NCBI RefSeq assembly: GCF_001677475.2
Contig: NZ_CP015229.1
From: Escherichia coli
GTDB lineage: Bacteria; Pseudomonadota; Gammaproteobacteria; Enterobacterales; Enterobacteriaceae
Strand: one strand, 5' to 3'
Length of the DNA: 64,000 bases
Shown piece after piece: positions 1 through 21,479 of this stretch. The notes beneath the pieces were generated by a model, which searched no databases, was not told the origin of the DNA, and worked only from the letters and a program-made list of their open reading frames with translations. The translations under genes and the position numbers were made by a program. Within the stretch, counting starts at the first letter, position 1; the number at the start of each line of letters is the position of its first letter.

Positions 1-100
1 TGTTACTCTGTTGCCGTTCTTATCCCGATAAATAGCGCCGGGGATAATTTTGGGATGTGCATAACCGCTGGCAGTCAAGCCAGATAAATACGTTCTCATG
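1..100 (-). CDS. Hypothetical protein, 5' end only (gene continues past window start); last visible gene of a coupled minus-strand operon
   Basis: ATG at 100..98 on minus strand, 5 nt after the stop of the 106..426 ORF, preceded by a GGGGA RBS-like stretch; frame open to position 1 (MRTYLSGLTASGYAHPKIIPGAIYRDKNGNRVT...). Confidence 0.35.
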
Positions 101-105
101 ATTAT

Positions 106-426
106 TTATCCCCGATTTGAATCAGTATTCGCTTTCTTTATGGCATTTAATGCATCTGTGGCATTTTCAATGGTGCACCGTAACGAAATATCAAAATGTC
201 CAAGCATTGCCAGTAACAAACCGATATTACCCATATCAATGCGCATGGCCTTTTCGTCATAGTCCTCATTTTCTGACGCATGCCACATCAGGCTACCAAT
301 TGACGCAACGGCCATTGATATATTGTCAGTCGCCCCATCCGCAGCGGAATAAACCTTTTTAGCAATATCATGCTCACAGTTAAAATGCGGATTAATCAGG
401 TACTGGTAATTTGACATATCAGGCAT
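106..426 (-). CDS. Hypothetical protein (106 aa), island cargo, unknown family
   Basis: ORF in track; its start overlaps the stop of the upstream 67-aa gene in the sequence ATGCCTGA (translational coupling). Confidence 0.5.
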   Translation of the reverse strand: MPDMSNYQYLINPHFNCEHDIAKKVYSAADGATDNISMAVASIGSLMWHASENEDYDEKAMRIDMGNIGLLLAMLGHFDISLRCTIENATDALNAIKKANTDSNRG

Positions 427-622
427 GGCACACCCCCTGACGAATACGGGCGGCGAATACCATCACGCAGCCAGCCGGGGAGTGCTGGCGTGCTTCCTGT
501 TCGCTGGTGGCCACGATGGTAATCACACGCGGTTTTGCGGCGCTCAGGGCGATAAAACGCCAGGCGAATTTATTCAGGTTGTGCGAATCCCGCCCTTGCG
601 GGTGTATGGTATGATTTCTCAT
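419..622 (-). CDS. Hypothetical small protein (67 aa), first gene of the minus-strand operon
   Basis: ATG at 622..620 preceded by GAGG at 5-nt spacing; stop overlaps start of the 106..426 ORF. The 334-aa track ORF 419..1423 is judged an artefactual upstream extension. Confidence 0.45.
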   Translation of the reverse strand: MRNHTIHPQGRDSHNLNKFAWRFIALSAAKPRVITIVATSEQEARQHSPAGCVMVFAARIRQGVCHA

Positions 623-660
623 AGCTACCTCGATACTCTCGTTATCGTTGGTGGTTAGAA

Positions 661-706
661 GCCCTGCGAGTGGTAACGACACTTGCGGGGCTTTGTTTTT
701 TGTTGC
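661..706 (+). terminator. Strand-specific intrinsic terminator-like hairpin (12-bp stem with two G-U wobbles, then T-run)
   Basis: GCCCTGCGAGTG...CACTTGCGGGGC followed by TTTGTTTTTT on the plus strand; wobble pairs become C-A mismatches on the minus strand. Confidence 0.35.
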
Positions 707-713
707 ACTTACT

Positions 714-766
714 GTTAATGTACGTACGTAATATTGATGATAATAGGAGTTACGTACGTACATGTC
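714..766. promoter_or_regulatory. Two copies of the self-complementary decamer TACGTACGTA about 32 bp apart; candidate operators for the adjacent RHH repressor
   Basis: TGTACGTACGTAAT at ~718-731 and GTTACGTACGTACATG at ~750-765; the second overlaps the ATG of the 762..953 gene. Confidence 0.4.
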
Positions 767-953
767 AACATTAAAGCGGGATAAATCACCACGCGGCGAG
801 GGATGGTCGCCGACATTCCAGATACGAATTAGCAAAGAACTACGCCAGCAAGTAAACGAGGCAGCAACCGCCGATGGCCTAACCCTCGGCAATTGGTTTA
901 AAGAATTAGCTCGTGCCGAACTAAAGCGACGCGGCATTGAACCTAAAGGCTGA
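762..953 (+). CDS. Ribbon-helix-helix (Arc/MetJ/CopG-like) DNA-binding protein, 63 aa
   Basis: N-terminal beta-strand pattern TFQIRISKELRQQVNEAA typical of RHH repressors; operator palindromes overlap the start codon. Confidence 0.5.
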   Translation: MSTLKRDKSPRGEGWSPTFQIRISKELRQQVNEAATADGLTLGNWFKELARAELKRRGIEPKG

Positions 954-956
954 TGT

Positions 957-1082
957 ATGACTGAAAAGCAGACCGATAACAAACTTTCTCTACCAGAGAA
1001 TAAACCAGCAGGCTTCTTACCAAGAAAAATCCTTGATGAGATCAAACGCCGCCAGCGGCGCAAGGCCAAAGAGCAGGAGTAA
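957..1082 (+). CDS. Small hypothetical protein (41 aa), basic C-terminus
   Basis: ATG 3 nt after the RHH gene stop (TGATGTATGA), same strand; not in track because shorter than 60 aa. Confidence 0.25.
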   Translation: MTEKQTDNKLSLPENKPAGFLPRKILDEIKRRQRRKAKEQE

Positions 1083-1139
1083 CCATCACCAGCGCCGTGG
1101 TGCGGTGAACTGTGGCGCACAGGGTTACAGGTATCTACG

Positions 1140-1319
1140 ATGACTGACAAATCATTAAAGAAATTATCCTCATCCAAGAAAAAACAACGCAAAAATGCGG
1201 TAAACGAACATGAACCGGAGAGATTCGCACCATGTGCGTTTATCCTTGAGAAGTACCTTAAAGAGTATTCTAGGAAAATACGCTCATTGCAGGCATGGCA
1301 GCGAATCGAGCCAGACTGA
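1140..1319 (+). CDS. Small hypothetical protein (59 aa), lysine-rich
   Basis: Manual translation MTDKSLKKLSSSKKKQRKNAVNEHEPERFAPCAFILEKYLKEYSRKIRSLQAWQRIEPD; same strand as the RHH gene. Confidence 0.2.
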   Translation: MTDKSLKKLSSSKKKQRKNAVNEHEPERFAPCAFILEKYLKEYSRKIRSLQAWQRIEPD

Positions 1320-1429
1320 TAGCATTGCCCACCAGCCAACAACCTGGTATTCTGGATATGCTCAAGTTTAGTGTTATGCCACTGGCGGCCCTCTGCGGTC
1401 GCCTTTGTTTTATGTGCCATCACTCCCCC

Positions 1430-1648
1430 TTACACCGTCTGCGTTCTGCGAGTGGATGCAAGATAAGCATCGAGATCAGTGCGCATATACAGCACTTTGC
1501 GCCCCAGCTTATGGAAAGGGATTTTTACCTTGCCAGTACAGGCCCAGTTCGCCAGCGTTTGATTGTTAACGCCAAGGTAGGCAGCAGCTTCAGCACGTGT
1601 AAGGCGGTCAGTTGATAAATCAGATTTCTTTAAATTCATATCTATCAC
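1430..1648 (-). CDS. alpA: AlpA-family prophage regulatory protein (excisionase-like HTH), 72 aa
   Basis: Size and sequence LTRAEAAAYLGVNNQTLANWACTGKVKIPFHKLGRKVLYMRTDLDAYL match the AlpA/Vis family; sits downstream of int as in CP4-57. Confidence 0.7.
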   Translation of the reverse strand: MIDMNLKKSDLSTDRLTRAEAAAYLGVNNQTLANWACTGKVKIPFHKLGRKVLYMRTDLDAYLASTRRTQTV

Positions 1649-1781
1649 CGTGTACTTCTAAGTAACAACGGTGATAAATATCAATCAATGGGTATTTTGT
1701 TTTTAGCCCAATAGCCAGTTGCTGTGGGGAGGTTACCAGTTATTTAGCCTTAATAGCCAGCTATTAAGATACACTAGCCAG

Positions 1782-2507
1782 CTATTGGGGGTGAACAAGT
1801 TCAAACGAAGAATATTTATCAGGTCTTGGTGGTTGTGCTCCTGATTCTTTAATCCATTTATCCAGAGTGTTTTTACTTACTTTCCCATGATAGTAAACAG
1901 AAAGCTCGTTCAATAAACCTGTTTTACTGGCTTTAGGGTACTTTTCCCATGTTAGTTTAATTACGTGCATAACTTCATTGTAATAATGATTTCTTGGTTT
2001 GCGCGCTTTTTCTTTCTGTGATAAGGATAAAGCATCTTTTATTTTTTTATCTTTTTCATGGTTCGATATAATTTCTTCAAAAAAGTCATTAAGCAATAAC
2101 TCAACACCAACCCTAGTAAGTTTGTCTGCGTGATTACGCATTCCGACATGGTACAATGCAACTGCTGAATTTAAAGTATCGACAACCTGACAAGATAGTT
2201 TACTATCAAATATTAAAAAACCACATGAATCCATTCTTATAGCTAATTCAATAGGATATTGCTCGATTTCTCTTAATTCTAAACCATAACACAAAAGAAA
2301 TTCTCTTGTTGGATACTTTGATTTATAAAAATAATCTCTTATATCATCAATCAAGCGTTTTATAGCCTCTATGGTGGAGTTTTTCGGGGATAAAGATACA
2401 GGAACGTTTAAAACTGAAGAGTCTCGCCCACCAGTAATTAAATCATTCATAACCGAATAAATAATATATTGTTTGACCGATATATTGTTATCACCCATAT
2501 ATGTCAT
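1782..2507 (-). CDS. Hypothetical protein (241 aa), strongly AT-rich cargo gene between int and alpA
   Basis: ORF in track; start overlaps the integrase stop (2491..2507); composition visibly more AT-rich than flanking genes. Confidence 0.55.
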   Translation of the reverse strand: MTYMGDNNISVKQYIIYSVMNDLITGGRDSSVLNVPVSLSPKNSTIEAIKRLIDDIRDYFYKSKYPTREFLLCYGLELREIEQYPIELAIRMDSCGFLIFDSKLSCQVVDTLNSAVALYHVGMRNHADKLTRVGVELLLNDFFEEIISNHEKDKKIKDALSLSQKEKARKPRNHYYNEVMHVIKLTWEKYPKASKTGLLNELSVYYHGKVSKNTLDKWIKESGAQPPRPDKYSSFELVHPQ

Positions 2508-3912
2508 TCTTTTCTTGTACTATAGCAAATAGTAAACGACGTTTTTCATCATCACTCATGCCCTCCAGTGCGGAAAGTAATTGCGCATCGATAGATTTTT
2601 TACTCTCCACCAGCCCGGCATGTTCCAGAATTGCCCGTTCTATCCGTGATGCTGGCTCCAGCAGTTCATCAGCACCGAAATGTAAATACCCCTGCGTTAC
2701 GTCGGCACTTCGCATAGTGCGGTGATTCATCAGGCGCTTGAGGATGTAATTACCCACGCCCACCAGCTCAGCAACCGTTCCGAACGTCCGGCGTGCGTCG
2801 TGCCACTTAAACGGGACAGGGAAGAGCATTTCATCGTTCGCCTCAGGAATGGTAGCCGCGCTTATCCGGTCTATGATGTGCCGTGTCTCCTGAATCACTC
2901 CCTTCACGCCAGGAAACACCAGCACATCATCAGCAGCTTTGTTTTTTAGCCTGCGAAGAAACATTTTCCGCAACGTATCAGTGATCGGCAGTTCAAGCGG
3001 ATCCCCGTTTTTCGTGGTGTCTATCCAGAAAAAGCGACCGCCCATATTCACGCGATCCCACGTAAGGCCAAAAACTTCTGATTTCCTCAGTCCGGTAAAC
3101 AGTGCCATTTCCACGGCATCACATACCGTAACAGCTATATCATCCCTTTCCTGTTCGCCCTGGTCGCGCACAGCAGCTACAGCAGCAAACCAGCGGGGAA
3201 AATCATGCAGGCGGATACGTTCCGTTTTTCTTACCGTTCCGTGCCACTGGCGCTTGGTGCTCAGTACCAGAGTCGGCGGATCCGGTAAAAGAGTATTACC
3301 CGCATCATCACGGTAATGATCATGCGCAAACCGACACACAGCACGTAGCGCACGCGCCCATAAATCGGCCTGTGCCTTGCTTCCTGTACCAACCCCAGCC
3401 CGTAACGTGGTTTTATCAGCACCGAACCATACAGCCCCATCAGTGATGGCCTTATGCCGTTGTTCCACCCGTTCGCGGGAAATACTGGCGAGGGTATGGG
3501 CCATCCAGTCACCGGAATAATTCTGTAATATGCTGCGGTACTGTTTTTCTGTGGAGGGTTTCAGGCGGTGGCCACGATTTTTTACGTAGGCGTCAATCGC
3601 CTCACTCAGCGTTATCATGGCCTTGTTGTTAGTGCGCTTTGCTATGTTCGGATTTATCCCCGTTGTGGCGACTTCGCCAAGGAGTTCCATAGCTTTAGCC
3701 CTGGCATTATCCACGCTCAGATCAGGAAAACGCCCCAGCGTTGCACGAATAAATTTTCCGTTACGCTTACGGGAAATGCAGAAACTTTTCACACCAGACG
3801 AACCTACACGGACACGCAGCCCGTTAACCTCCGTATCACCATATTCGACCTGTCCATGTTCCGGCGTTGGCAGTTCTGCAATTTTTACTTTAGAGAATCT
3901 GAATAATTTCAC
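2491..3912 (-). CDS. int: Tyrosine recombinase / phage integrase (P4-family), 473 aa
   Basis: N-terminal arm-binding pattern (EVNGLRVRV...GK...ATLGRFPDLSVDNARAKAMELL) and C-terminal catalytic motifs (HDARRT...GYLH); adjacent to tRNA-derived att site. Confidence 0.85.
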   Translation of the reverse strand: MKLFRFSKVKIAELPTPEHGQVEYGDTEVNGLRVRVGSSGVKSFCISRKRNGKFIRATLGRFPDLSVDNARAKAMELLGEVATTGINPNIAKRTNNKAMITLSEAIDAYVKNRGHRLKPSTEKQYRSILQNYSGDWMAHTLASISRERVEQRHKAITDGAVWFGADKTTLRAGVGTGSKAQADLWARALRAVCRFAHDHYRDDAGNTLLPDPPTLVLSTKRQWHGTVRKTERIRLHDFPRWFAAVAAVRDQGEQERDDIAVTVCDAVEMALFTGLRKSEVFGLTWDRVNMGGRFFWIDTTKNGDPLELPITDTLRKMFLRRLKNKAADDVLVFPGVKGVIQETRHIIDRISAATIPEANDEMLFPVPFKWHDARRTFGTVAELVGVGNYILKRLMNHRTMRSADVTQGYLHFGADELLEPASRIERAILEHAGLVESKKSIDAQLLSALEGMSDDEKRRLLFAIVQEKNDIYG

Positions 3913-4092
3913 TCATACACCCCACCAAGCGATCTGGTATCCTGGAAAATCGCTTGTTCTGCTCCAGGATACCTATAGGATACCGTAAAGAAGTATTTTG
4001 GGGTATATACAGGTATTTATACAGTAGTTTTAAAAAATGCTAAGGTATTGAAAAGTATCGCTAAGTATCTGTAAGTAAAGGGTTATCAACCA
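3913..4092. promoter_or_regulatory. Integrase upstream region with reiterated short motifs (GGTATCC/GGATACC inverted and direct copies; AAGTATC direct copies); candidate int promoter and arm-type sites
   Basis: Visible repeats CTGGTATCCTGG...CCAGGATACC...GGATACC and TAAGTATCGCTAAGTATCTGTAAG. Confidence 0.3.
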
Positions 4093-4139
4093 ACTCATAA
4101 TCGCTTGGTCGCTGGTTCAAGTCCAGCAGGGGCCACCAG
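4093..4139 (+). tRNA. ileX: Truncated tRNA: 3' 47 nt of a tRNA-Ile2(CAU)/ileX-like gene (anticodon loop through CCA); island att site, not a complete tRNA
   Basis: ACTCATAATCGCTTGGTCGCTGGTTCAAGTCCAGCAGGGGCCACCA matches the 3' portion of E. coli ileX as I recall it; no complementary 5' acceptor strand upstream. Confidence 0.6.
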
Positions 4140-4146
4140 ATATAGC

Positions 4147-4182
4147 AAAGGCTGACGAGAAATCGTCAGCCTTTTTCTTTTT
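4147..4182. terminator. Intrinsic terminator hairpin between tRNA fragment and yqjH 3' end
   Basis: GGCTGACGA-GAAA-TCGTCAGCC followed by TTTTTCTTTTT. Confidence 0.5.
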
Positions 4183-4191
4183 ATATATCAG

Positions 4192-4956
4192 TTACTTTGC
4201 GTGCCAGTAAGCCGCTGCACGTACCCGCTGTGGATCATACTGTTCCGCTTCAAAGCGGCGGCTTAAATTCTTAACGACTTTGCCTTCGCCGGTTATCCAG
4301 ATGAAGTAATCATCGGCAGGGATTTGCATCTGCGCCAGACGCGCATCTACTGCCTGCTCATCATGTGCCAGCCATTCGATATTAAAACCATCAAGGTGCG
4401 CGAGATAATCCTGACAGGCGTTATCCCGCACGCTAACCAGCGCACTAACTTGCGGTTTAACGGCAAGTTTGCTCAACGTTTCCAGGCGGCGGCGCAGTGC
4501 GGGCATTCCGGATTCATCGCAGACATACAGCTGATACGCGTAATCTTCCGGCACCACCAGCGAACCGCGGGGACCTGCCACCGTGAGTTTATCGCCCGGT
4601 TGCGCCTGCATTGCCCAGCTGCTGGCGACGCCACCTTCGTGAATAAAGAAATCAATCGCCAGTACATGGCGTAGTTCGTCATACAGCGGTGTATAGTCAC
4701 GCGACGGTGGGCGTGGTCCTTCCGGCCAGACGATGCCCTCTTCCGTTACTGTTGGCGGCACAAAGTGAGCATCAGATTGAGGAAAGAAGAGTTTGCTGTG
4801 ATCGTCAAAGCCGCGCGATGTAAAACCGTCCAGCGCCTCGCCGCCAAAGACAATGCGCTGAAAACCGGCGCTAATACGCTCAACGCGTAGCACAGTCAGT
4901 TCACGGAAGCGCAGATCATTGCGAACGCGCTGCGGGTAGCGGGGGGAGTTATTCAT
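4192..4956 (-). CDS. yqjH: NADPH-dependent ferric-siderophore reductase (siderophore-interacting protein)
   Basis: ORF in track; sequence and position match K-12 YqjH. Confidence 0.9.
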   Translation of the reverse strand: MNNSPRYPQRVRNDLRFRELTVLRVERISAGFQRIVFGGEALDGFTSRGFDDHSKLFFPQSDAHFVPPTVTEEGIVWPEGPRPPSRDYTPLYDELRHVLAIDFFIHEGGVASSWAMQAQPGDKLTVAGPRGSLVVPEDYAYQLYVCDESGMPALRRRLETLSKLAVKPQVSALVSVRDNACQDYLAHLDGFNIEWLAHDEQAVDARLAQMQIPADDYFIWITGEGKVVKNLSRRFEAEQYDPQRVRAAAYWHAK

Positions 4957-4977
4957 TGTTATCGCCTTCGTGATAGT

Positions 4978-5214
4978 AATAAGATATATCTAAATAAATT
5001 TCGTAAATGATAATGATTGTTAATCATGATAAATGCAAGCGATTTGTAGAACTGATACATCTGAGGTATGAGAAGACATTCAACGTCGTAGAAAGGCTGG
5101 CGGATGCGGCGTGAACGTATTATCCGGCCTGGATGTGAGGTGCATTCACGTTTAAAAATCATTTTTATACTTGCAAGAGCGCTCATGTCAGATATAAATT
5201 AGATATATCTAATT
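4978..5214. promoter_or_regulatory. yqjH-yqjI divergent control region with two AGATATATCT palindromes (one within a perfect 18-bp palindrome AATTAGATATATCTAATT)
   Basis: AGATATATCT at 4982..4991 (yqjH side) and 5201..5210 (yqjI side, palindrome spanning 5197..5214). Confidence 0.5.
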
Positions 5215-5232
5215 AAGCAAAAGGAGGCTGAT

Positions 5233-5856
5233 ATGAGCCATCATCACGAAGGGTGTTGTAAACATGAAGGCCAGCCACGCCATGAAGGCTGCTGCAAAGG
5301 TGAGAAGTCAGAACATGAGCACTGCGGACACGGTCACCAGCATGAACACGGTCAATGCTGCGGTGGTCGCCACGGTCGCGGCGGCGGTCGTCGGCAGCGT
5401 TTCTTTGGTCACGGTGAATTGCGTCTGGTGATTCTGGATATTCTCTCGCGCGATGACAGCCACGGTTACGAGTTGATTAAAGCGATTGAAAATCTGACCC
5501 AGGGGAATTACACCCCAAGCCCGGGCGTCATCTACCCGACGCTGGATTTTCTCCAGGAGCAGTCGCTGATTACCATCCGCGAAGAGGAAGGTGGTAAGAA
5601 GCAGATTGCGCTGACCGAACAAGGCGCGCAGTGGCTGGAAGAAAACCGCGAACAGGTGGAGATGATCGAAGAACGCATCAAAGCGCGTTGCGTTGGTGCA
5701 GCGCTGCGCCAGAACCCGCAAATGAAGCGGGCGCTGGATAATTTTAAAGCGGTGCTGGATTTACGCGTCAACCAGAGCGATATCACTGATGCACAAATAA
5801 AAAAGATCATTGCGGTGATCGACCGCGCCGCTTTTGATATTACGCAACTGGATTAA
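5233..5856 (+). CDS. yqjI: PadR-family metal-responsive repressor with His/Cys-rich N-terminus
   Basis: ORF in track; N-terminal MSHHHEGCCKHEG...HEHGQCC tract plus PadR-like core. Confidence 0.9.
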   Translation: MSHHHEGCCKHEGQPRHEGCCKGEKSEHEHCGHGHQHEHGQCCGGRHGRGGGRRQRFFGHGELRLVILDILSRDDSHGYELIKAIENLTQGNYTPSPGVIYPTLDFLQEQSLITIREEEGGKKQIALTEQGAQWLEENREQVEMIEERIKARCVGAALRQNPQMKRALDNFKAVLDLRVNQSDITDAQIKKIIAVIDRAAFDITQLD

Positions 5857-5861
5857 TCACC

Positions 5862-5962
5862 GATTGCCGGATGCGGCGTACCCTACACACCCCGTAGGCC
5901 TGATAAGATGCGCCAGCATCGCATCAGGCATTGTGCTCCAACCGCCGGATGCGGCATACCGA
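5862..5962. repeat. REP/BIME palindromic units
   Basis: GCCGGATGCGGCGTA...GCATCAGGC and CCGGATGCGGCATACC motifs. Confidence 0.5.
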
Positions 5963-7483
5963 TTAATGCAGCACCGTCACCGCGTCTTCCAGTCGGCTGG
6001 CGCGGTGTTTCACCATCGCCGACACCTGCGCACTCTCTTCCACCAGCTCGGCATTTTTCTGGGTGATCAGGTTAAGCTCATCCACTGCACGGGTCAGGCT
6101 GGAAAGCCCATCGGCCTGTTCCAGCGTTGAGTGGCTAATCTGGGCGATCAACTGGGTGACGTTTTTCACCTGTGCCACAATATCTTCCATCGTCCGTCCG
6201 GCGGCGTGTACCTGCTGCGAACCGGATTGCACCTTATCAGCACTGGCATCAATCAGCTTGCGAATATCGTTGGCAGCATTGGCGCTGCGGCTGGCTAAAT
6301 GACGCACTTCCCCTGCCACCACTGCAAAACCTTTGCCTTGTTCGCCGGCTCGTGCCGCTTCCACCGCCGCATTCAGGGCCAGAATATTGGTCTGAAACGC
6401 AATATCGTTAATCAGCGAAGTAATGGTGCCAATGCGCTGGGTACTGTCGGCGATATCGTCCATTGTCTTGATCACCGTGCTCATCGCCTCCCCGCCCTGC
6501 ACTGCCGCATTACTGGCAGTGATAGAAAGTTTATCGGCAGCCGACGCCGTGGCAGAGTTCTGTTTCACCGACGCCGCCATTTGGTTCATGGTCGCCACCG
6601 TTTGCTGAACGTTATCAACTGTCTGCTGGGTATGTTCGTTCAGTTCATCGGTGCCTTTCGCCAGCGTCTCACTGCCGTTTCTGACACTGGACACCTGGCT
6701 TGAGACATCGTTAATTAGCCAACGGCACATCAGGCCAAGCTGCCCTACCGCGCGTAATGTCAGCCCCAGCTCATCGCTGCGATTCAGATGCTCAACACTA
6801 TTACGCTCTCCGGTCGCCACCTTCAGTGACTGACGGGCGACATTTTCTATCGGGCGGACAATCTGCCATTCAAAACAGGCGCTTGCCAACAATACCACTA
6901 ACGCACAGAGGATATACGTCACCACCGGGGCAGCAACAAACCAAAGCATGACCGCCAGCAAGATAAACATCAGGGTCATCACGCCACGCGCCCGCCAGCG
7001 AAGCGGTAATGAAGGCAGTTTACCCAGCCAGCCTTTACGCACCACCAGGCCTTTATGAATACGCTTACTGGTACGTCCGGCGTTCAACGCTTTGTACAGC
7101 GGCTCCACCGCCGCGATCTCTTCATCCGTCGCCCGGGTACGAATCGACATATAGCCACTGATTTTTCCCTCACGCACCATCGGTACCGCATTGGCCCGCA
7201 CCCAATAATGGTCGCCATTTTTGCGGCGATTTTTCACGATGCCGCTCCAGGGCTCCCCTTTTTTCAGGGTGAACCACATATCCGCAAACGCCGCTTTTGG
7301 CATATCCGGGTGACGCACCATGTTGTGCGGCTGCCCTTGTAACTCTTGCAAGGTATAGCCGCTCACCTGTACAAAAGTGTCATTAGCATGAGTGAGATAG
7401 CTTTTCAGATCGGTAGTGGACATCAGAGTGGTATCGTCCGCCAGCGGGGTATTTTGCTGGGTGACATACGAATGAGAAGACAT
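5963..7483 (-). CDS. aer: Aerotaxis receptor Aer (PAS-FAD sensor, HAMP, methyl-accepting signalling domain)
   Basis: ORF in track; PAS N-terminus and MCP signalling domain recognisable. Confidence 0.9.
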   Translation of the reverse strand: MSSHSYVTQQNTPLADDTTLMSTTDLKSYLTHANDTFVQVSGYTLQELQGQPHNMVRHPDMPKAAFADMWFTLKKGEPWSGIVKNRRKNGDHYWVRANAVPMVREGKISGYMSIRTRATDEEIAAVEPLYKALNAGRTSKRIHKGLVVRKGWLGKLPSLPLRWRARGVMTLMFILLAVMLWFVAAPVVTYILCALVVLLASACFEWQIVRPIENVARQSLKVATGERNSVEHLNRSDELGLTLRAVGQLGLMCRWLINDVSSQVSSVRNGSETLAKGTDELNEHTQQTVDNVQQTVATMNQMAASVKQNSATASAADKLSITASNAAVQGGEAMSTVIKTMDDIADSTQRIGTITSLINDIAFQTNILALNAAVEAARAGEQGKGFAVVAGEVRHLASRSANAANDIRKLIDASADKVQSGSQQVHAAGRTMEDIVAQVKNVTQLIAQISHSTLEQADGLSSLTRAVDELNLITQKNAELVEESAQVSAMVKHRASRLEDAVTVLH

Positions 7484-7765
7484 GTTCGCGTCCTGTGCAG
7501 GTTATATGGTTGTTAACTTCTTGTCAGAGTTTATGTCGGCCCCGCTGCGGTTATCTTTAACCGATTAATTTGATTTAGATCGCAATTTGCGATTAAAGCA
7601 CAAATCTAATTCCTTGATTTAAAATACTTTCACTCTGTTACTATACGAAAACGTTAATTATCTTGCCCAAAAATCAGGCAGTTAATGCCCTGAAAGCGTG
7701 CATTTGCGCAGCAATCATCAAATCCATACCCGACAAAAACCGTGCAAAATAACAGCAAATATTAA

Positions 7766-9280
<1,515 letters not shown>

Positions 9281-19909: not shown

Positions 19910-21479
<1,570 letters not shown>

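Follow-up and report, generated by a model that had tools for sequence, protein, structure and literature searches.

Paired palindromes in the divergent nfeF–nfeR spacer of Escherichia coli as candidate operators of the PadR-family repressor NfeR

Described NfeR and PadR operators

The closest described system is that of Escherichia coli K-12, in which the regulator YqjI (NfeR) has two sites, sites I and II, in the spacer between yqjH (nfeF) and yqjI (nfeR) (Wang, Wu and Outten, J Bacteriol 193:563, 2011; Wang et al. 2014). The regulator, its two spacer sites, the co-regulation by Fur, and the nickel-dependent derepression are already known from that work of 2011–2014. The first-pass annotation of the DNA analyzed here had stated that YqjI represses both genes in a metal-dependent manner, and this agrees with the secondary literature: PMC7981267, citing the 2011 and 2014 studies, describes nfeF as repressed by NfeR/YqjI in E. 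coli, with relief by nickel, and it reports that deletion of nfeR in Klebsiella pneumoniae raises nfeF 85-fold. The title of the second study (Wang et al. 2014, J Bacteriol 196:3199) adds that communication between the sites is required.

The locus described below, which lies in a 64-kb stretch of E. coli DNA (the window), shares with K-12 the same genes, their divergent layout, the Fur box, and the REP element. It differs from K-12 in lacking the 11-bp segment CATCATTACTC, in its shorter spacer (276 vs. 287 bp), in having A rather than C at position 4981, and in the middle of the spacer, where GATACATC stands in place of GATATGTC. Site II is identical to that of K-12 MG1655 at 18 of 18 positions and site I at 17 of 18. 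The abstract of the 2011 study reportedly locates YqjI binding at inverted repeats in the promoters of yqjH and yqjI, and the 2014 study is said to describe an extended footprint at the yqjI-side site. Presumably, to judge from these abstracts, the published YqjI footprints coincide with the palindromes described here, which are almost certainly the already-described NfeR sites. Our analysis consequently carries little weight as a discovery and serves to validate a call made from sequence alone; what is gained is a precise map of the elements of this spacer allele and comparative evidence, independent of the original biochemistry, that ties the motif to its regulator.

A second point of reference is provided by the operators of other PadR proteins. 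The PadR box, recognized by Bacillus subtilis PadR and Lactococcus lactis LmrR, has the form ATGT-N8-ACAT, and PMC5050560 gives this box and places the recognition helices of the Clostridium difficile cdPadR1 dimer ~34 Å apart. The cdPadR1 operator reads TACT-N11-12-AGTA and has an AT-rich core. The nfeR-side site shows the same N8 geometry as the PadR box, with an 8-nt linker between the outer tetramers of ATTA-GATATATC-TAAT (5198–5213), whereas the letters of the half-sites differ, and conservation here is highest in the central GATATATC and not in the outer tetramers. The PadR systems have in common with NfeR a homodimeric winged-helix fold, an inverted repeat with an AT-rich center, and an autoregulatory site over the regulator's own promoter. 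The effectors differ: in proteins of the PadR/LmrR type a phenolic acid or drug is bound between the C-terminal helices, whereas in NfeR the effector would be a metal bound to a disordered His/Cys-rich tail. The loops formed by LacI, GalR, AraC, and DeoR likewise involve two distant operators, here ~100–230 bp apart at divergent promoters; in contrast to those systems, looping between nfeF and nfeR is only conceivable here; with related species grouped into 10 length classes, the phase signal is not significant (p = 0.22).

Palindromes and promoters of the nfeF–nfeR spacer

The spacer extends over 276 bp (4957–5232), from the nfeF start codon (CAT at 4954–4956 on the plus strand) to the nfeR ATG at 5233. 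This arrangement is the same in K-12 MG1655, and the region was matched in 5,422 of 5,426 complete E. coli genomes, the flanking genes being annotated as nfeF and nfeR in RefSeq. The repressed target nfeF (yqjH; 4192–4956, minus strand) encodes a siderophore-interacting NADPH-dependent ferric-chelate reductase of 254 aa with matches to the Pfam domains FAD_binding_9 (E 6.9e-36) and SIP (E 1.6e-25). On the plus strand, nfeR (yqjI; 5233–5856) encodes a PadR-family repressor of 207 aa (Pfam PadR, PF03551; 56.6 bits against a cut-off of 27) with the His/Cys-rich N-terminal extension that had been noted in the first reading of the sequence: residues 1–53 contain 12 His and 7 Cys, compared with 2 and 1, respectively, in the other 154 residues. 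In the AF2 (AlphaFold) model, residues 1–53 are disordered and are followed by a winged helix–turn–helix (62–127) and C-terminal helices. A PDB sequence search found no structure of NfeR itself; the top Foldseek matches to the model are all PadR, LmrR, or Rv3488 structures (probability 1.00), including the complex of B. subtilis PadR with its operator (5x11).

The 10-mer AGATATATCT occurs exactly twice in the window, at 4982–4991 and 5201–5210, and both copies lie inside the spacer; the mean number of chance copies in the window is 0.04, and two copies were reached in none of 100 dinucleotide-preserving shuffles. The first-pass annotation had placed these two palindromes just upstream of yqjH and yqjI, respectively, the second within a perfect 18-bp palindrome, and these statements are confirmed. 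The distance from the end of the core to the start codon is 25 nt for nfeF and 22 nt for nfeR, and 5197–5214 (AATTAGATATATCTAATT) equals its own reverse complement, with a symmetry that stops short of 20 bp. Perfect 18-bp palindromes are found at only two places in the window, the other (20794–20811) being unrelated to AGATATATCT. On the nfeF side the palindrome is perfect over 10 bp only (4982–4991); in the 18 bp around it, AATAAGATATATCTAAAT, 14 positions are symmetric, corresponding to 7 of 9 arm pairs. We refer to this context (4978–4995, with the 8-bp core GATATATC at 4983–4990) as site I, the candidate NfeR operator at the nfeF promoter, and to 5197–5214 (core 5201–5210) as site II, its candidate counterpart at the nfeR promoter. 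A repeat search finds the two sites embedded in a 26-nt direct repeat with a spacing of 219 bp and 85% identity, and it identifies them as the only notable inverted repeats adjoining both promoters. When the window was searched with TTAGATATATCTAA, allowing up to three mismatches, there were no matches beyond sites I and II; for genome-scale scanning, the NfeR motif can be written as TTAGATATATC.

A consensus promoter scan of 4900–5300 reported no promoter, and the promoters were therefore placed by hand, from conservation and from a published table of constitutive promoters (PMC3946193). The nfeR promoter was missed by the scan because the latter demands T at position 6, the last position, of the -10 hexamer. 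The predicted sigma-70 promoter of nfeR (5171–5198, plus strand) consists of a -35 element TTGCAA (5171–5176), a 16-nt spacer, and a -10 element TATAAA (5193–5198); the hexamers independently predicted for yqjI in the table of PMC3946193 are the same, TTGCAA and TATAAA, and TTG and TATAAA are at least 90% conserved. With the -10 element ending at 5198, the predicted transcription start, at ~5205, falls on the center of site II (5205/5206). A Shine–Dalgarno sequence, AGGAGG, follows at 5222–5227 on the plus strand.

Two predicted promoters can be considered for nfeF, both on the minus strand. The first (5010–5038) has a -35 element TTGCAT (5038–5033), a 17-nt spacer, and a -10 element CATTAT (5015–5010), and it would put site I at about +9 to +26 of the predicted start; we favor it because its -35 block, TGCAAG, is separated from the Fur core by an unchanging 28 nt, as seen in 70 of 74 spacers. 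The second corresponds to the yqjH promoter listed in the same table (TTAACA-18-TTTTAT; PMC3946193) and reads in the window TTAACA (5023–5018), an 18-nt spacer, and ATTTAT (4999–4994), with a predicted start inside site I. Taking both options together, the position of site I relative to the predicted nfeF starts ranges from about -5 to +26. The nfeF promoter is overlapped by a Fur box, AAATGATAATGATTGTTAATCATGATAAA (5005–5033), in which 5008–5022 forms the 7-1-7 inverted repeat TGATAATNATTATCA with two mismatches (0.23 matches with at most two mismatches expected in the window); the Fur core ATGATAATGRTT is conserved in 76 of 76 spacers. Between the promoter and the gene, a ribosome-binding block, TCACGAAGGCG (4963–4973, minus strand), carries AAGG 8 nt before the nfeF ATG, and CGCCTTCGTGA within this region is conserved across genera. 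Part of this block forms, with early His codons of nfeR, a perfect 8-nt inverted repeat (4967–4974, TTCGTGAT; 5243–5250, ATCACGAA) that is probably due to chance. A 75-aa ORF on the minus strand (4959–5186) spans both conserved regulatory blocks and the variable center of the spacer and was for this reason judged to be spurious.

If transcription starts as predicted, the palindromes are at least partly transcribed, and they might then act as RNA hairpins in 5' untranslated regions, controlling translation or stability. The RNA of the site II 22-mer does fold (-3.7 kcal/mol, z = -3.0), but this hairpin is weak, with A–U pairs throughout except for a single G–C pair, the RNA of site I has no fold at all (0 kcal/mol, z = +0.5), and the nfeF leader RNA is no more stable than its shuffles (z = -0.6). 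RNA structure would moreover not explain the presence of the motif upstream of promoters in distant homologs. We rejected a role as RNA hairpins on account of the unfolded site I RNA and regard it as the least credible of the explanations considered here, with next to no chance of being correct.

Conservation of the motif with its regulator

With a protein profile of NfeR we gathered 80 species-representative loci. The divergent nfeF–nfeR arrangement is found in all 76 enterobacterial loci that include upstream sequence, and GATATATC is present as an exact match at the nfeF-proximal site in 76 of 76 spacers, ~25 nt from the start codon, and at the nfeR-proximal site in 75 of 76, at 15–22 nt. 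Both sites are present in the spacers of Klebsiella. The complete 10-mer AGATATATCT is less widespread (29 of 76 at site I and 32 of 76 at site II). In the orientation of each gene, the motif takes the form T-T-(T/A)-A-GATATATC, after which conservation declines; given this weak conservation on the gene-proximal side of both sites, the biologically relevant motif is less symmetric than the 18-mer of E. coli suggests. In an unbiased, strand-collapsed count of 8-mers in 77 spacers, the highest ranks are held only by this motif (77 of 77 spacers, with at least two copies in 76) and by the Fur box; among shuffled spacers, 0.65 of 77 are expected to have the motif. Within the spacers there are 155 occurrences of GATATATC, compared with two in 388 kb of flanking sequence. 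The blocks that stand out in the alignment are the nfeF ribosome-binding region, site I, the Fur box, TGCAAG, a T-run with GATATAG, the TTG of the nfeR -35 element, and TAGATATAAATTAGATATATC.

The regulator itself varies in its tail. The EGCCK repeats that make up the Cys-rich part of the N-terminus are confined to Escherichia, Citrobacter, and Salmonella (alignment A2; loci L016–L081), and most NfeR orthologs of Enterobacter, Leclercia, and Lelliottia have short His-rich tails that lack Cys. That the tails differ between genera while the operator and the DNA-binding domain are unchanged suggests that metal sensing differs between genera.

We then consider homologs outside this group. An exhaustive HMMER search yielded 1,788 cluster representatives at E ≤ 1e-10, and DNA was taken for eight of them, with 32–54% identity to NfeR. 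All eight carry an exact GATATATC 21–84 nt upstream of their own start codons, mostly within AAGATATATCTT, as the 12-bp palindrome TTAAGATATATCTTAG, whereas a single further copy of GATATATC is found elsewhere in 24 kb of flanking sequence. The residues HGY..I and PSPG..YP.L of the helix–turn–helix are invariant among the eight. Only the closest of these homologs retains a divergent SIP gene; the other seven are in unrelated gene contexts, with neighbors that include an SMR transporter, a DUF2218 protein, a Fur-family gene, and a catalase-peroxidase, among others, and the upstream regions of some of them contain 48–57% G+C yet carry the exact GATATATC. The motif, found in eight of eight cases before the gene of an NfeR-like protein, as an autoregulatory PadR box would be, therefore travels with the regulator gene and not with nfeF, with Fur, or with an AT-rich context. 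This result is the strongest argument available from sequence that the motif would be the regulator's own operator, and the AAGATATATCTT-type box before distant NfeR-like genes offers a ready operator prediction for many uncharacterized PadR proteins. Three loci can be singled out: in L097 (1501–2482), an uncharacterized NfeR-like PadR gene with a AAGATATATCTT box is in an apparent operon with a Fur-family gene, and in L093 and L098 uncharacterized genes of the same kind, also with the box, are in apparent operons with DUF2218.

This comparison bears on two further explanations. The conserved sequences could be promoter elements (an AT-rich -10 element, a discriminator, a start site) whose palindromy is incidental; the predicted nfeR -10 TATAAA is indeed contained in a tandem element at 5190–5199, the predicted +1 falls within site II, and a -10-like ATTTAT precedes site I. 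The invariant G and C that bracket ATATAT, however, are not features of sigma-70 promoters, the same 8-mer is present at both promoters in 76 of 77 spacers compared with 0.65 of 77 when shuffled, and the 12-bp palindrome recurs upstream of unrelated homologous regulators, so that we consider this explanation very improbable.

Alternatively, the palindromes could be bound mainly by another protein, such as PepA, H-NS, or IHF, or be part of an extended Fur array. The high-affinity motif of H-NS, TCGATATATT, resembles CGATATATC, and site I, which reads ACGATATATCT in most genera, appears to resemble the H-NS nucleation motif. The spacer region has an A+T content of 64%, and in PMC8249747 the nfeF/nfeR spacer is given as the single genomic target in a genomic SELEX experiment with PepA, so that a protein other than NfeR does bind at some point of this AT-rich DNA. 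Against these points, the core precedes eight of eight distant NfeR-like genes in unrelated and partly GC-rich contexts that have neither nfeF nor a Fur box; H-NS is marked at neighboring spacers but not at yqjH/yqjI in the table of PMC3946193; and the Fur box forms a conserved unit of its own, whose core is 22–23 bp from the core of site I in 60 of 76 spacers (range 17–25). We accordingly judge a principal role of another protein to be very unlikely, at about the same level as the promoter-element explanation.

We posit instead that the two palindromes are operators of NfeR, the PadR-family repressor encoded at 5233–5856, and assign to this reading a probability of roughly 0.92. The first-pass annotation had named the two sites as the obvious operator candidates of YqjI, a proposal that gains support from their conservation, their position at the predicted promoters, and the way in which the motif accompanies regulators of this family. 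From the present computations come the sites and their degree of conservation, their placement with respect to predicted promoters, the fold of the protein, and the association of motif and regulator; repression and its relief by nickel are taken from the literature. We envisage that an NfeR dimer would read T-T-A-GATATATC-T-A-A with its two recognition helices, which include the invariant segment SPSPGVIYPTL, set in consecutive major grooves, contacts that we infer. Site II begins at the last two bases of the predicted nfeR -10 element and covers the predicted start, and NfeR bound there would block RNA polymerase, resulting in autorepression. Site I is at or just downstream of the predicted nfeF start, where NfeR could block binding or escape of the polymerase. 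Fe-Fur would independently cover the -10 and -35 elements of nfeF through the adjacent Fur box, placing nfeF under dual control. Nickel (or iron) bound to the disordered His/Cys-rich N-terminus would lower the affinity of NfeR for DNA and thus derepress both genes. Cooperation between sites I and II is a further, inferred part of this mechanism.

Additional elements, spacing, and variation of the spacer

The reading given by the first-pass annotation is incomplete rather than wrong, as it missed two elements of the spacer, a tandem element upstream of site II and a degenerate copy of the motif in the middle of the spacer. The tandem element, AGATATAAAT (5190–5199, plus strand), precedes site II by 11 bp and shares bases with the -10 hexamer of nfeR. 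Its sequence TAGATATAAAT is exact in 46 of 76 species, the continuous stretch TAGATATAAATTAGATATATC on the nfeR side is at least 90% conserved, and spacers of the Enterobacter type have three such units at 11-bp spacing on the nfeR side. Its conservation has two possible causes, since the element contains the -10 box. The tandem element is probably an additional half-site for NfeR, so that the operator on the nfeR side would be composite; at one 11-bp step upstream of site II, it would probably recruit a second NfeR dimer and so lengthen the operator.

The middle copy, TGATACATCT (5053–5062), has the core GATACATC with one mismatch. At this position four E. coli strains and E. albertii have TGATATATCT, with an exact core, and K-12, O157:H7, and GPEC1354 have TGATATGTCT. 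The counterpart in other genera is a conserved TTTTTGATATAG, found in 64 of 70 spacers at a distance of 63–66 nt from site I. This middle copy could possibly be an auxiliary NfeR site or part of a UP-like element of the nfeF promoter.

The distance between sites I and II falls into discrete classes. In 39 species it is 182–186 bp, and the remaining classes are 96/97, 120, 165, 171–175, 178/179, 193–195, 217/219, and 230 bp; the window has 219 bp, compared with 230 bp in K-12. The 71-nt center of the spacers in the 182–186-bp class has a median identity of 0.41, compared with 0.35 by chance, and its length has a standard deviation of 0.9. In a periodogram of the spacings, computed over all loci, the maximum is at 11.0 bp (R = 0.69). 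When the loci are collapsed to 10 length classes, helical phasing is not significant (R = 0.55, null p = 0.22), and the classes of 165 and 178–179 bp are out of phase; a conservation of helical phase between the two sites is thus only suggestive. The communication reported between the two sites may have its basis in the third, degenerate copy and in the constrained length of the spacer.

A broader reading would join these observations, and we advance it tentatively, at somewhat below even odds. It holds that GATATATC/AAGATATATCTT is the shared autoregulatory box of a large PadR clade, and that the NfeR sites form an array of three or four elements with constrained spacing that supports a looped or higher-order repression complex. 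The array may consist of sites I and II together with the middle copy and the tandem element that overlaps the -10 box. The clade may consist mostly of uncharacterized two-domain PadR regulators with basic or His-rich N-terminal tails and varied target genes. The spacing appears constrained, at 182–186 bp in most genera and in steps of roughly 11 bp that include an indel of exactly 11 bp in E. coli. The shared box and the composite nfeR-side operator may be of interest to specialists in metal regulation or in the PadR family.

Variation within Escherichia was followed in an alignment of 10 spacers, those of the window and K-12 and eight others. The cores of sites I and II are invariant in all 10, and the two ends of the spacer are nearly invariant, one with site I and the Fur box and the other with the promoter, the tandem element, and site II; position 4981, adjoining the site I palindrome, is A in the window, unlike in the nine other spacers. 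The center is highly diverged, and most genomes are 83–84% identical to the window across the spacer. It contains a REP element (5099–5132), whose sequence CGGATGCGGCGTRAACG occurs five times in the window compared with 0.04 expected. The element is present in 10 of 10 Escherichia spacers examined, and among 42 aligned spacers it aligns only in Escherichia sequences (the window, K-12, and E. albertii).

Two spacer alleles are common in E. coli, of 276 and 287 bp, and they are separated by the exact 11-bp indel of CATCATTACTC beside the REP element (5089–5091). About 3,700 of the 5,422 genomes are only 80–90% identical to the spacer of the window, which is consistent with their carrying the longer, K-12-type allele; six spacers in this identity range whose length is known measure 287–288 bp. 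A 50-nt megablast query for site II matched 4,133 genomes, 3,906 of them with at least 99% identity. The corresponding 50-nt query for site I had no matches, a result that is uninformative because megablast needs an exact word of 28 nt.

One strain has the two sites far apart. In E. coli IAI39 (L082, 3001–4723), the middle of the nfeF–nfeR spacer is occupied by a transposase gene of IS1397 (IS3 family), which begins 221 bp from the nfeF start codon and parts sites I and II by ~1.7 kb. It provides a natural test of the need for communication between the sites.

The DNA beyond nfeF may also have a history of insertion, to judge from its remnants. ARAGORN found no tRNA in positions 1–8000 of the window. 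Next to nfeF, only the 3' ~47 nt of the tRNA-Ile(CAU) gene ileX are present, from the anticodon loop to CCA (about 4093–4139). To the left of this remnant is unrelated DNA with a 473-aa ORF on the minus strand (2491–3912) that encodes a putative integrase. This looks like a genomic island integrated in ileX, with an att-type remnant at about 4093–4139.
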